Source: Candidatus Spongiisociaceae bacterium (GTDB lineage Bacteria > Actinomycetota > Acidimicrobiia > Spongiisociales > Spongiisociaceae). From it: a stretch of 64,000 nucleotides of DNA. The number at the start of each line of letters is the position of its first letter. The first letter of the stretch is position 1. Location: NCBI GenBank assembly GCA_965219685.1, contig CBDCOH010000002.1:1184001-1248000 (forward strand), read 5' to 3'. This document shows, piece by piece, positions 6,759 to 60,262 of the stretch. The position numbers and the translations under genes were made by a program. The notes beneath the pieces are model-generated. The model saw nothing but the letters and a program-made list of their open reading frames with translations. It had not been told where the DNA came from and did no database searches.

Positions 6759-6944
6759 GCGCAGAGGCTACCGGTCGAAGCCCCGGTCCCGTTCGTGGCT
6801 GTCTTCGTCCTGCCCGGCATCGGGGTCACCGAAGTCTCCATTGCGTGGATCCAGGGAGGTGCCATCGGTGCCGGAAGACGCCCGACACCCCAGGGAGCGG
6901 GAAGACAGACCCCGAGAACGCGAAAAACACTCATACTTGTAGGG

Positions 6945-7125
6945 TCCTCCTCGGCTGGGGGCCGGGTCTGACCCACGCGAAAACTGGCGTTTGGTGCCTT
7001 TCCCACGATCTGTCGACCTGGCCCTAGCCGGGAGCCCTGAACCGGGGAGCGGGGTGACCTTATAGGAGCTTCGACTTCTCCACCTTGAGTGTTCTGTCCG
7101 CCGCTCTGCCCGGCTCAGGGGGACT
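6945..7125 (+). ncRNA. Putative IS110 bridge RNA (target-binding loop plus donor-binding loop)
   Basis: Guides ACGCGAAAA (6975-6983), CCACGAT (7003-7009), ATAGGAGC (7062-7069) and TGAGTGTT (7086-7093) match target and donor halves and lie in loops closed by stems (GGTCTGAC/GTCGACC; CCCTGA-CCGGG-GAGCGG/CCGCTC-CCCGG-TCAGGG); RNA boundaries approximate. Confidence 0.8.
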
Positions 7126-7158
7126 TGGAATTGTAGGCAGCTAGCGGGAGGTGGGCAC

Positions 7159-8394
7159 ATGGAAGAGCAAGATCGAGCCGATGGCATGGTTGTGGTCGGT
7201 GGGGTGGATACGCATCGGGATACCCATGTTGGGGCGGTGGTCGATGCCGCGGGTCGGCTGTTGGGATCGGCCCAGTTCCGGGCTGATGCCACTGGCTATG
7301 GGCAACTGGTTGCCTGGATGGAGTCGTGGGGTCGGGTCAGCCGGGTCGGGGTGGAAGGGACTGGCAGCTACGGTGCCGGCCTCGCCCGTCACCTCGGCGG
7401 GGCCGACATAGAGGTGGTGGAGGTGAACCGTCCCAACCGGCAGCTACGCCGCCGGCGGGGCAAGGACGACCACACCGACGCCGAAGCAGCAGCTCGGGCA
7501 GCTCTGAATGGTGAAGCAACCGCGGTGCCCAAGTCCGGCGACGGGCCGGTCGAGTGGATACGGATGCTGTCAGTAACCCGCCGCTCCGCCGTCAAGGCCC
7601 GCACCCAGGCCGCCAACCAACTCCATGCCTTGGTGGTTGGTGCCCCAGAGCCGATAAAGGACCAGCTAAAGGGCATGAAACTCAGAGCCCGCGTCCGGGT
7701 GTGCGCCCGGTTCCGACCCAGCGGAGAGTCCTCTGTCAGCTACGCTAAGCAGGCTCTCCGCCGCCTGGCCCGCCGCTACCAGGTCCTCGACACCGAGATC
7801 GCAGAGCTCGATGTCGAGATCCGCCGTCTCTGCGCCAAGGCCAACCCGGCCCTGTTGGCCGCCAACGGTGTCGGCCCCGACACAGCCGCCAAGCTGCTGG
7901 TCGCAGCCGGCGACAATCCCGAGCGTATGAAATCGGAACGATCCTTCGCTGCGCTGTGCGGTGTCAGCCCTGTGCAGGCGTCGTCTGGGCGAAGGGTTCG
8001 GCATCGTCTCAGCCGGGGCGGCAACCGCCAAGCAAACAGCGCCCTGTGGCGGATCGCTACCAACCGGATGCGTACCGACGCCGCCACCAAAGCCTACGCG
8101 GCACGACGCAAGGCCGAGGGGAAGAAGAGAAAGGAGATCATCCGCTGCCTCAAGCGGCACATCGCCCGAGAAACCTACCGTCTCCTCACCAACCCGCCAC
8201 CAACCCCGAACTGCGCCCGGCTACGCAGCCGACGTCAACAACGCGGAATCACCGTCACCGAGGCCGCCCGAACTCTCGGAACCTACCCCAGCCGCATCTC
8301 AGCACTCGAGCTCGGCCGAGACCACAACCACCAACTCGCTACCCGATACCAGAGGTGGCTCCGAACTCCCGAACCGGCCCCGTCCCCGACTTGA
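7159..8394 (+). CDS. IS110-family DEDD recombinase/transposase with an additional C-terminal HTH
   Basis: GGVDTH, GVEGTGSYG, KDDHTDA, GVSPVQASSG (catalytic Ser), RGGNRQANSAL; RBS GGGAGG upstream. Confidence 0.95.
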   Translation: MEEQDRADGMVVVGGVDTHRDTHVGAVVDAAGRLLGSAQFRADATGYGQLVAWMESWGRVSRVGVEGTGSYGAGLARHLGGADIEVVEVNRPNRQLRRRRGKDDHTDAEAAARAALNGEATAVPKSGDGPVEWIRMLSVTRRSAVKARTQAANQLHALVVGAPEPIKDQLKGMKLRARVRVCARFRPSGESSVSYAKQALRRLARRYQVLDTEIAELDVEIRRLCAKANPALLAANGVGPDTAAKLLVAAGDNPERMKSERSFAALCGVSPVQASSGRRVRHRLSRGGNRQANSALWRIATNRMRTDAATKAYAARRKAEGKKRKEIIRCLKRHIARETYRLLTNPPPTPNCARLRSRRQQRGITVTEAARTLGTYPSRISALELGRDHNHQLATRYQRWLRTPEPAPSPT

Positions 8395-8696
8395 CAAACA
8401 TAGGAGCATCGTGGAGATCGGCTTCCACACAGGGCCCGCCCCCACCGCCACCTCCTCGAATCCCGGACGCGTCCTGCCGCCTCCCCCCTACGGGTCGCTC
8501 CGGGTGCATGATCCCTGCCCGGTCCGTTCGGTACCGCCTTCGGACCGTTGGTGTCTACGGCTACTTACCAGTATGCGACGGCGCTGTGACACGGGCCCAT
8601 CGAGAAGCTTGAAACCTCGGAGGGTTGCGAGCGCGGAGGGTGTGCCGTTCTCGGACGGAGATGCTGGCCGCGAGGAACTGAACACCCGCCAACCCT

Positions 8697-24195: not shown

Positions 24196-24517
24196 CCTCG
24201 GGCGTTCCTCCCTTTTCGGTCGGTGAGCGGTGCCGGTCGGCGAGCGTCTCCCCGGGGCGTTCACGCGAGCAACAGAAACCTGGGGTGCATTCTAGGAGGA
24301 CGCCGAAGGACTATCTATCGGGGGTCGCTGCTCGGTGAACCACCTGGTGTCAGCGCTGCCAGTTGCCCGCGAACCCCTCTCGCACGGGCTTTCAGCCGCT
24401 GGGGTGCCCCAAGTCCCTGGCCCGCTGTGCAACCGCAGCGCGGTAGACCATCGACCGGACACCCGACCGCTCGCAGCGCCGCGGGTACCGAGCGCTTCGT
24501 AACGAGGGGGTTGTCCG

Positions 24518-24708
24518 TGTCACGGTCACGCTGCATACTGGTGAGTAGCCGTAAACACCACCGGTCCGTTCACGGTACCGATCGGACCGGGGCGGGGATC
24601 ATCTTGTTGGGTGCCGGGGATGGCCGGGACGCGTGCGGAGACTTCGGAGGTGGCGGTCGGGGGCGGGCCCGCCGGAGGGGTCCGGTCGGGGGTTTTTCGC
24701 GTTCTCGG
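24518..24708 (+). repeat. Dispersed ~190-bp element, copy 2 (candidate sRNA unit: promoter, hairpins, terminator); weaker similarity extends ~24455-24778
   Basis: TGTCA(24518)-N11-CATACT(24534), hairpin CCGGTCCG/CGGACCGG, GGAGGTGGCGGTCGGGGG, hairpin plus TTTTT. Confidence 0.9.
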
Positions 24709-24891
24709 TTGCGCCGGGTTGCCTGGTGGGATGGCCGGTACGTCCCGGAAACCTGCAACGAGTCCAGGAACCAGGACACCCAGGAGGTGCCGGCGGAACC
24801 GTACGTGACTTACTCGTTCGCCGGGCGAACATTGTTGACCCGGCGTCCGGCACGAGGCAGCCGGCGGGATCCGCCCCTACGCCGCTCCCTC

Positions 24892-51657: not shown

Positions 51658-52898
<1,241 letters not shown>

Positions 52899-58897: not shown

Positions 58898-59106
58898 CCG
58901 TCCGCCACGTCCAGCCCGCGTCGGCCACCAAGCCCTACCGCTGTCCGGGATGCGAGGGAGTGATCGCCAAGGGGAGATTCCACCTGGTTGTGGTCCCGGA
59001 TGACGAACCTGATCTGCGGCGCCACTGGCACCACGGCTGCTGGTACAAGGAGCGGCGCCGAGATTCCGGGCGTAGGTCCCGACACGAGGGGAGCGAATCC
59101 TCATAG
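58894..59106 (+). CDS. Conserved small actinobacterial Cys/His protein
   Basis: KPYRCPGC...HLVVVP...RRHWHHGCW; GTGA overlap with the upstream sORF. Confidence 0.75.
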   Translation: MTVRHVQPASATKPYRCPGCEGVIAKGRFHLVVVPDDEPDLRRHWHHGCWYKERRRDSGRRSRHEGSESS

Positions 59107-59176
59107 CGTCCTGATTCCTCGATTCCCTCCAGACGCCCGGACGTACAGCTCGTCCAACCCGCCAGCTCCGCGATTA

Positions 59177-59376
59177 CCGAGAACGCGAAAAACCCCCGAC
59201 CGGACCCCTCCGGTGGGCCCACCCCCGACCGCCACCTCCGAAGTCTTCGAACGCGTCTAGCCATCTTCCCGTGGGAAGTCGGCTCCGACACATGATCCCC
59301 GCCCCGGTCCGTTCGGCACCGTAAACGGACCGGTGGTGCTTACGGCTGATAACCAGTATGCAACGGGGCTGTGACA
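59177..59376 (-). repeat. Dispersed ~190-bp element, copy 3; weaker similarity extends ~59108-59440
   Basis: Near-identical blocks to copy 2; TGTCA-N11-CATACT at 59376-59355. Confidence 0.9.
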
Positions 59377-59492
59377 TGGACAACCCCTTCGTTGAGAGCG
59401 TCCAGGTCACGCCGGATCCGGGAGCGGTTCGGAATGCCGATCCTTGGACTTGCAGCGATGCGGCACCGCAGCGAACAAACGACCCCGGGACG

Positions 59493-59840
59493 TTAGGCGA
59501 CCCTCCGATGCCATTCGATCGTCGCCCCGTCGCGACCGAACACGACCGTGACCAGATCAACCCGCCATATCCCTAGAGAGCGGGCCGAGCGCAGCACCCG
59601 GTCCGCCTTGCGGTCGGTGAAGTTCCAGCGGGGGTGATGGTTCGCCGACGCCATGCCGGACTTGACCTCGACCGCGAAACGGCCGCCGGCGTCAGTGGCC
59701 ACGAGATCGATCTCGCCCCGACCGGCCGCCACGTTTCGGTCTTCGATCCTGGCCCCCTGCCGCACAAGGAAGGTGGCGGCGACCCACTCCCCCAGCGAGC
59801 CCAGGAACCCGCGGTGCCTGCTGATCGGCGTCTGGCGCAT
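59493..59840 (-). CDS. yraN: YraN family PD-(D/E)XK nuclease
   Basis: LGSLGEWVAATFL, RN, GEIDLVA, VEVK, RVDLV; RBS GGAGGAG. Confidence 0.88.
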   Translation of the reverse strand: MRQTPISRHRGFLGSLGEWVAATFLVRQGARIEDRNVAAGRGEIDLVATDAGGRFAVEVKSGMASANHHPRWNFTDRKADRVLRSARSLGIWRVDLVTVVFGRDGATIEWHRRVA

Positions 59841-59905: not shown

Positions 59906-60035
59906 TTTCTTGGGGTGTTGGCTGTAAGGCGTTCCGTGTTAGGTGGGTTGACGGTGCGGAACCGTCCTCCGTCCCTTTCGAGATAGGTCGCCCCCGGAAA
60001 ACCATGTGACCCAACGCCAACCACCCGGTCACCAA

Positions 60036-60258
60036 CTAACAACTAACCCCAATTCTTCATGGATCGGAGTTGTAGGGAACGATGGAGCGGGAGCTTTGGA
60101 ATCCTGACCTGGGATTACGGCTATCGGATAGCCTTGCCCCGGCGGCCGCGCGAGCCTAACCCGCCGGGTGAAGGGTGGCCCCTCCGGAATCATGAGGTTG
60201 AACTGGGCTGATGTACGTCGGTGTGCCGGGAACATGAAGAATCAGGGCTAACAACTAA
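60036..60258. other. ~190-bp segment bounded by 10-bp inverted repeats and flanked by CTAACAACTAA direct repeats
   Basis: ATTCTTCATG 60052-60061 / CATGAAGAAT 60233-60242; direct repeats at 60036-60046 and 60248-60258. Confidence 0.6.
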
Positions 60259-60262
60259 TCAG

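Follow-up and report, generated by a model that had tools for sequence, protein, structure and literature searches.

A miniature IS630-type transposable element that probably carries a conserved, structured RNA gene with a damage-type promoter

What is a piece of intergenic DNA that recurs within a bacterial genome, begins with a promoter of the DNA-damage type and ends with a terminator-like hairpin? This question is raised by a 64-kb window (positions 1,184,001 to 1,248,000 of contig CBDCOH010000002.1) of Candidatus Spongiisociaceae bacterium, which sits in a 4.39-Mb contig with a G+C content of 65%. An inspection of the letters without database searches (hereafter the sequence-only reading) had described three diverged copies of a non-coding unit in this window, one of them at 24518-24708, and had proposed a candidate new small RNA (sRNA) family. 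Judged by its termini, the repeated unit is an IS630-type MITE (miniature inverted-repeat transposable element). The complete reading, which we consider reasonably probable, is an IS630-family MITE with a conserved, structured RNA gene, driven by a damage-type promoter, as its cargo. The genome under study is designated G000 and the relatives with which it was compared G001, G002, G004, G005, G006 and G007.

Direct reading of the sequence located the three copies, here called A, B and C, where they had been reported. Each contains TGTCA-N11-CATACT with one of the three spacers quoted earlier, the CGGTCCG...CGGACCG hairpin, GGGATCA, GACGCG and GGAGGTGGCGGT, and TTTTTCGCGTTCTCGG forms the terminus of copies A and B. 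The extent first given for copy A proved too short, being only the core: the whole MITE-like unit spans ~24404-24779 (plus strand, ~376 bp), with eroded ends (left GTGCCCCAAG, right CAGGACAC) that were placed by alignment with better-kept copies of G000 and G001. Copy B likewise spans ~59106-59494 (minus strand, ~389 bp) around a core earlier given as 59177-59376, and its ends are also eroded. All parts of copy A lie on the plus strand. Its promoter (24511-24539) consists of a -35-like TTGTCC (24511-24516), a -26 TGTCAC (24518-24523) and a -10 CATACT (24534-24539). The predicted RNA of ~150 nt (24546-24697) would start ~7 nt past the -10 element and end within the U-run at 24693-24697; a covariance model, R1, made from 26 G000 copies and a hand-drawn structure, matches 24547-24711 with 149 bits. 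The 5′ strand of helix P1 (AGCCGT ... CACC, 24547-24559) has its partner GGTG-GCGGT at 24649-24657, and encloses the P2 hairpin (CCGGTCCG / CGGACCGG, 24561-24590) with the palindromic loop hexamer GGTACC at 24574-24579. Next, between 24595 and 24633, come a GGGATCA junction (24595-24601), a variable hairpin (P3) and a conserved GACGCG (24628-24633), while a G-rich GGGGGCGGGCCC, a terminator-like hairpin, the U-run and an invariant CGCG make up 24659-24701.

Copy C (minus strand) is indeed split by an IS110-family insertion, as had been noticed. Its 5′ part, from the promoter to GGGCCC..., lies at 8415-8591 (93.7 bits with R1) and a 3′ remnant (TTTTTCGCGTTCTCG) at 6912-6926, separated by a 1.49-kb element at 6927-8414 (plus strand) whose transposase open reading frame (ORF; 7159-8394) contains the Pfam domains DEDD_Tnp_IS110 (4.8e-23) and Transposase_20 (1.2e-20). 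The orthologue in G007 is uninterrupted. As an observation on the insertion itself, three IS110 copies that are at least 90% identical (window 6927-8414; G000 C2:3057215-3058696 and C2:3093132-3094615) all abut CGCGAAA(A), the reverse complement of the invariant TTTTCGCG of the MITE, so that this motif may be an IS110 target.

The three copies belong to a far larger family. BLASTN across the genome added ~30 copies, iterated nhmmer gave 51 matches (47 near full length) and the covariance model detects 45 copies in G000. The intergenic location described for the window holds throughout, with 46 of 47 copies overlapping none of the 3,711 gene calls of a crude codon-usage caller, which cover 86% of the contig. 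Comparison of the neighbouring ORFs of the G000 copies revealed no recurrent ORF family beside them. The impression that the unit is not a named RNA family was borne out by an Rfam scan of the window, which at gathering thresholds gave no match at the three copies; an E-value scan of copy A returned sub-threshold matches of E = 0.89 or worse. The 376-bp unit had no match in plasmid and phage collections, and the literature on PafBC/RecA-NDp, on MITEs and IS630, and on the host taxon contained no description of the element, with the limit that supplementary regulon lists could name related promoters. Of the sequencing runs listed for a 10-kb stretch with this sequence, none is an RNA run; DNA reads (four runs from one study) gave unitigs that break inside the repeat at 24680-24709, without joints.

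These data bear on two simple explanations. One is that the unit encodes a small protein: stop-free frames are common, one anchored frame being open in as many as 28 of 38 tested copies, and copy A formally lies within a 745-aa ORF. In none of the anchored frames are all copies free of stops, which agrees with the earlier statement that a common ORF is lacking; moreover, indels between copies are not multiples of three, the helices carry compensatory changes, and long spurious ORFs are expected at 65% G+C, leaving this explanation with next to no credibility. The other is that the unit acts in cis on the gene behind it, as a leader, attenuator or riboswitch. Such a role would suit the 16 of 47 copies with a co-oriented downstream gene, and one copy precedes secY inside a ribosomal-protein operon. 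For the remaining 31, however, the downstream gene is convergent, which argues against a leader; as the downstream genes are mutually unrelated and Rfam gave no match, we regard this role as extremely unlikely.

How, then, did the unit multiply? Similarity among the closest copies extends ~100 nt past both sides of the 190-nt core, and complete units measure 330-460 bp, bounded by CTAG/TGTCCYG ... CRGGACA/CTAG (slashes mark the unit boundaries). The boundaries are sharp in G001, where a 333-bp unit that starts with CTAG/TGTCCCG and ends with CAGGACA/CTAG, a terminal inverted repeat, is shared by eight copies with pairwise identities of 91-96% (28 pairs). The family is younger in G001 than in G000. 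Aligned G001 copies have C-TA before and TA-G after the unit, and the TA duplication is read from these flanks alone. Copy numbers in relatives reach at least 96 matches, and at least 18 of the listed G001 matches sit no more than ~330 nt from a contig start. The same ends occur in a second G001 subfamily and in the best-kept G000 copies, such as the 332-bp copy at C2:2324508-2324839.

A candidate source of these ends is found in G002, a sister species with 12 near-full-length matches to an IS630-family transposase (at least 254 bits; Pfam DDE_3 and HTH domains). In the five copies examined, all five carry TAGTGTCCTG at both ends, 1,174 bp apart. TAGTGTCCYG / CRGGACACTA therefore marks both ends of complete G000 and G001 units as well as of five out of five examined G002 IS630 copies. 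IS630 elements insert at CTAG and duplicate TA. An IS630 transposase acting in trans would accordingly place the unit at CTAG sites with duplication of TA; no IS630 transposase scored above the cut-off in G000, whose copies would by now be fixed. Recognizable end repeats remain in few G000 copies (right end in 9/47, left in 5/47 and both in 4/47, at a chance rate of 2.5% per scanned window). The MITE and the 1,174-bp G002 element, which is intact, share only the terminal 22-27 bp, which makes the unit a type II MITE in the sense used in the accessible part of PMC10969869. The sequence-only reading had offered, as one option, that the unit is the non-autonomous portion of some mobile element, for example one of the DUF222/HNH type. 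Its first half stands, because the unit is non-autonomous with ends that match IS630; its second does not, as DUF222-HNH or HNH genes neither adjoin the copies nor have ends in common with them, and share the promoter type alone.

IS30 was also considered as a partner and rejected: the true IS30 ends, as defined on G002 copies, lie inside a 1,052-bp element (C2:4318586-4319637), which indicates that an IS30 inserted into a unit. This element has IS630-type ends around a broken IS30 transposase (frameshifts, stops, and a cut after the N-terminal part), and G002 holds ~18 intact copies of the same IS30, many in a common target sequence. A second, CTAG-flanked palindromic repeat of ~100 bp (GGAGGGTGCTGA...TCAGCACCCTCC) is often abutted by the MITE in G001 (loci L106-L119); when up to one mismatch is allowed, a 12-mer from it is found at 93 places on the two strands of G000.

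Copies of the unit are gained and lost between species. Copy A has an orthologue in G007 and is absent from G001, where the corresponding spacer is 232 nt. At the copy B locus G007 lacks the unit; in its place are 217 nt unrelated to it, which stop at the same CTAG. G007 in turn carries units that are missing from G000. Divergent copies, designated B-type, behave alike. One lies between rplO and secY (assigned by Pfam) in G000, G007 and G002 as a discrete insertion of ~300 bp, at a place where G001, G004 and G005 have a spacer of 21-39 nt, which implies that B-type units, too, have been mobile. This copy (G000 C2:3528310-3528650; locus L286:1461-1800) is co-oriented with its surroundings and retains its hairpin and U-run; the U-run is degraded in G002.

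The insertion between rplO and secY also bears on an account in which an old host sRNA family multiplied by duplication or recombination and only one member was later captured by IS630 ends, so that just ~10-15 copies (A-type) are MITEs. This would explain why ~35 of 47 copies lack IS630 ends and why B-type copies are syntenic across species whose genes are ~75% identical. The rplO-secY copy, a B-type member, is nevertheless a discrete ~300-bp insertion beside the 21-39 nt spacer of three species, and the same ends are found on several subfamilies in G001 and G000. We therefore hold a duplicated sRNA family to be quite improbable, although a different set of ends on some copies, for example TCGCGAAAAC / GTTTTCGCGA, would favor a second vehicle.

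Is the cargo an RNA gene? Sets of copies larger than the three in the window support a common fold. Among 43 G000 copies, 80.4% of the cells were paired (74.9% after shuffling) and 27 pairs had changed on both sides (16.8 after shuffling), values that none of 500 shuffles reached, while slid controls paired at most 48.7%. The 66 copies from other genomes gave 81.4% paired cells against 74.0%, 34 against 20.9 pairs changed on both sides and a covariation score of 0.235 against 0.130; again, 0 of 500 shuffles reached the observed values, and slid controls stayed at or below 47.9% paired cells and a score of 0.080. The P1 helix is paired in 95-98% of cells, with compensatory GC/AU/UA changes at one pair. 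P2 is paired in 95% of cells, and all eight of its pairs show compensatory changes on both sides. The base of P3 covaries as well, with G·U, A-U and G-C all seen. RNAalifold recovered P2 unaided from the model-fitted alignment. The earlier claim that structure is kept while sequence changes therefore holds in general, and one of its examples (GGCGGGCCCGCC versus GGTGGGCCCACC) is real; the other, GTGGA/TCCAC in copy C, is an artefact, because four of the five bases of the 3′ arm belong to the IS110 end.

The loop of P2 is peculiar in that its hexamer is GGUACC or GACGUC in most copies. Out of 109 hexamers, 84 are perfect palindromes, 15 are palindromic when G·U is allowed (GGCGUC, GGUGCC) and one is a variant of the A·C type. 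As positions 3 and 4 of the hexamer cannot pair within one loop, this pattern suggests pairing between two RNA molecules, and on this strand. At the 3′ end, a GCCC...GGGS hairpin abuts a run of four to five U residues in all copies when judged by eye, its outer stem being paired in 65-73% of cells, and all 41 aligned copies share an unchanged TTTCGCG. The pairing of GACGCG with CGCGUU that had been suggested is drawn by RNAalifold, shows no compensatory change, and would need a transcript that passes the U-run. The product would thus be an RNA of ~150-165 nt, closed by P1, with the P2 hairpin and a P4/P3 arm, followed by a G-rich stretch, a hairpin and the U-run at which transcription would terminate; through its self-complementary P2 loop, it may pair with a second copy of itself.

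The promoter had been recognized as the type activated by PafBC after DNA damage. The PafBC consensus tGTCgg(N10)tA(N3)T is read via the GTC triplet of the -26 element and has no -35 element, according to the portion of PMC8635444 that is available, and TGTCAC-N10-CATACT fits the register of that consensus. The -10 element keeps A2 and T6 in 39 of 42 copies. The genome also encodes the expected regulator, with pafA (684 bits) and two adjacent WYL genes (pafA-pafB-pafC). The promoter would thus combine a -35-like TTGAC, a PafBC-type -26 TGTCAC and the -10 CATACT, and the RNA may be induced by PafBC after DNA damage. A G-run upstream of the promoter is unlike the mycobacterial class. In sum, the promoter resembles PafBC/RecA-NDp promoters in its bipartite tGTC..(N10).A(N3)T register with the GTC triplet (PMC8635444, PMC6789036, as far as these texts are available), and differs from the mycobacterial class in having AC for gg, a -35-like TTGAC, and a predicted non-coding RNA as its product.

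Scanning G000 with a weight matrix for the stretch from the -26 to the -10 element yielded 45 sites outside the copies. The best of them lie ahead of dnaB and rmuC, of leaderless genes for DUF222-HNH (four) and HNH (five) proteins, and of several defence-like genes; no Pfam family was assigned to 8 of the 20 ORFs examined, and one site falls within recA. The four DUF222-HNH genes (427-429 aa; G000 C2:1962869-1964152, 2101494-2102777, 2862473-2863753 and 2540525-2541811) have nearly the promoter of the MITE cargo, GGGGTTGAC-N4-TGTCACA...TACAAC. The five HNH genes (451-454 aa; G000 C2:4118711-4120066, 468643-469998, 1412534-1413895, 510917-512269 and 1750660-1752015) show a PafBC-type motif and, downstream of it, a GAAC-N4-GTTC box overlapping the start codon. 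This box may be a LexA-like site, and the arrangement suggests dual PafBC and LexA-like control of these genes.

Such neighbors in regulation invite the idea that a co-induced nuclease (of the DUF222-HNH type or the 452-aa HNH family) uses the RNA as its guide or scaffold, with the variable P3 giving specificity. A conserved scaffold with a variable segment is the architecture that one would look for, and the GGGGTTGAC-N4-TGTCACA promoter does stand before the four leaderless DUF222-HNH genes. The copies are adjoined by no recurrent ORF, however, the variable segment is a closed hairpin and not a single strand, and beyond the promoter the HNH loci share no sequence with the unit (nhmmer gave no matches there), for which reasons a guide function appears very improbable.

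Three further observations concern promoters of this kind. The classical TGTCRGTG-N8-TANNNT has one exact match in G000 (C2:2092119, minus strand); it lies on the upstream side of a MITE copy, 120 nt away and in divergent orientation. Upstream regions at C2:3675409 and C2:3908318 contain insertions of 60-100 nt with CGGACAA-like short repeats, placed exactly between the -35-like hexamer and TGTCAC of two copies. The GGGGGTTGTCCGT part is duplicated there, and in G007 the site of copy B is occupied by sequence of a similar kind.

Ten pairs of G000-G007 orthologues are 88.0% identical in the RNA part and 74.8% and 73.3% identical in their flanks (260 nt each, partly including coding ends). A more distant comparison comes from G005, whose genes are ~71-77% identical to those of G000 and which keeps one B-type copy. 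Relative to its G000 orthologue, identity is 84% from P1 through P2 to GGGAUCA, 85% from the P3 base to GGGCCC and 100% in TTTTCGCGACC, falling to 40-52% in the flanks, 38% in distal P3 and 35% in the terminator interior. Likewise, the promoter TGTCAC is exact in 38 of 42 copies, though the end repeats are mostly eroded. The scaffold is hence conserved while flanks, distal stems and transposon ends decay, which argues for selection on the RNA after insertion. Together with covariation, this block-wise conservation supports the earlier idea of an RNA gene that has spread through the genome; like the mobile-element option, that idea is half right, the self-contained candidate gene lying between the ends of a MITE.

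The strongest competitor is a purely selfish MITE, whose helices and motifs serve transposition or the structure of DNA or single-stranded DNA (ssDNA), or are relics of the master copies, and whose transcript, if any, has no role in the cell. IS630-matching ends, a CTAG/TA-like target and at least 96 copies that break the G001 assembly are what such an element would show. The CGCG past the U-run and its upstream inverse are conserved and resemble a DNA feature, ssDNA also forms G·T pairs, and z-scores of the minimum free energy (MFE) are not significant. Selection for transposition, however, predicts the opposite of what the orthologues display, namely a kept scaffold with lost transposon ends and arms. 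TGTCAC remains exact in 38 of 42 copies of a genome without an IS630 transposase over the cut-off, and in every copy the promoter and the hairpin with its U-run keep the same fixed orientation. A purely selfish element is, on balance, unlikely.

Several results nevertheless weigh against the reading of the unit as a MITE with an RNA gene as cargo. Regarding the fold, the shuffle control fails to separate the 26 closest copies (98 of 500 shuffles reach the observed pairing), and fitting alignments A4 and A5 to the model biased the counts towards the structure. P2 is the sole helix that RNAalifold recovers from the model-fitted alignment, and MAFFT or anchor-based alignments yield 8-13 scattered pairs. 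Single copies have an MFE no better than that of shuffled sequences (z = 0.14 and -1.39), and their MFE folds disagree among themselves. As to the ends of the transcript, a simple scanner with a stricter rule calls neither promoter nor terminator in copy A, and the CGCG beyond the U-run is invariant, with its inverse upstream of some copies, which suggests either a longer transcript or a constraint acting on the DNA. The -26 element is TGTCAC, with AC replacing the gg of the PafBC consensus; only 7 of 42 promoters reach 9 of the 12 consensus matches; and 32 of 42 have a -35-like TTG (often TTGACC) 17 nt upstream of the -10 element, whereas the mycobacterial PafBC class, as the available text describes it, has none. 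Gene conversion among copies could mimic conservation. For mobility, ~35 of 47 copies are without recognizable IS630 ends, so that IS630-driven spread of these is presumed, and a clean empty site for an intact-ended unit was not found (candidate sites were diverged, occupied by other DNA or belonged to copies with eroded ends), hence the reliance on flanks for the TA duplication.

The unit is confined to a single taxonomic family. BLAST found it in 14 of 31 relatives, and R1 in 22 of 29 genomes of one Acidimicrobiia family. By genus, R1 matched 7/7, 3/3 and 11/12 genomes, and 0/6 in four other genera, two of these six genomes being only 72-78% complete. Across the order, 11 of 121 genomes had a match, all in that one family, and eleven sister families gave none in 107 genomes. 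Among the matches listed from a motif scan of a named collection, 34 of the 72 loci searched with R1 matched, each of these 34 bearing the title Acidimicrobiia, Candidatus Spongiisocius / Spongiisociaceae, Acidimicrobiaceae or simply 'bacterium'; listed motif loci with Streptomyces, Polyangiaceae, Bacteroidales, Myxococcota or Xenobia titles were without an R1 match.

The window has further features. A 330-bp stretch at 59933-60262 is missing from the G007 locus and has three more partial copies in G000 and several in G005, G006 and G007, which makes it another repeat family. An ALIL pseudoknot (Rfam RF01497, 104 bits) at 51936-52052 marks a frameshift site of the IS3 type, and the scan of the window also found seven tRNA genes.

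Compared with known systems, the unit resembles bacterial MITEs of the IS630 (Tc1/mariner) type in having terminal repeats identical to those of an autonomous element, CTAG/TA flanks, no transposase and tens of intergenic copies. It differs from typical members in its interior, which instead of a deleted transposase gene holds a putative transcription unit, conserved and oriented, that persists after the transposon ends have decayed. The dimerization initiation site (DIS) of retroviruses is a kissing-loop hairpin with a self-complementary loop. The 6-nt self-complementary loop of P2, whose variants keep self-complementarity, is similar to the DIS at the level of sequence, in a different biological context. 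A precedent for sRNAs that arise from MITE copies is provided by QMITE1/2 of Coxiella burnetii, the source of Cbsr3, Cbsr13 and Cbsr16 (PMC10969869, PMC5896051). Those RNAs were detected experimentally, their roles being described as unknown in the available parts of these sources, whereas the RNA described here is predicted and has its own conserved promoter, covarying helices and conservation between orthologues. Similarly, the Ssr9 sRNA gene of Pseudomonas putida travels with ISPpu9 (IS110 family) and has extra copies elsewhere (PMC12288879). This sRNA gene, too, is carried by a mobile element and found in multiple places, but, according to the same partial source, the IS family and mechanism are different, its copies are few, and it lies beside the transposase gene.

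What would such an RNA do? One possibility, though doubtful, is that it constitutes a domesticated arm of the PafBC response, in which 40-100 MITE-wired loci per genome release a damage-induced RNA that self-associates via its DIS-like loop and titrates or scaffolds a factor for repair, recombination or transposition. If this were true, the PafBC regulon would gain its first RNA member, and no multicopy sRNA family in a bacterium would be larger. On a more modest level, the family already has practical consequences: the repeat explains broken short-read assemblies of these uncultured Acidimicrobiia, as well as spurious long ORFs from gene callers, and the covariance model allows its annotation. 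The copy between rplO and secY raises the question of how an essential operon tolerates an inserted promoter and terminator, and how secY is expressed behind the latter. Should the RNA be expressed and induced in the predicted way, a non-coding component would be added to the PafBC damage response, so far known via its protein-coding targets, and the transposon would have been the vehicle that spread a complete, regulated RNA gene, which was then retained by the host.

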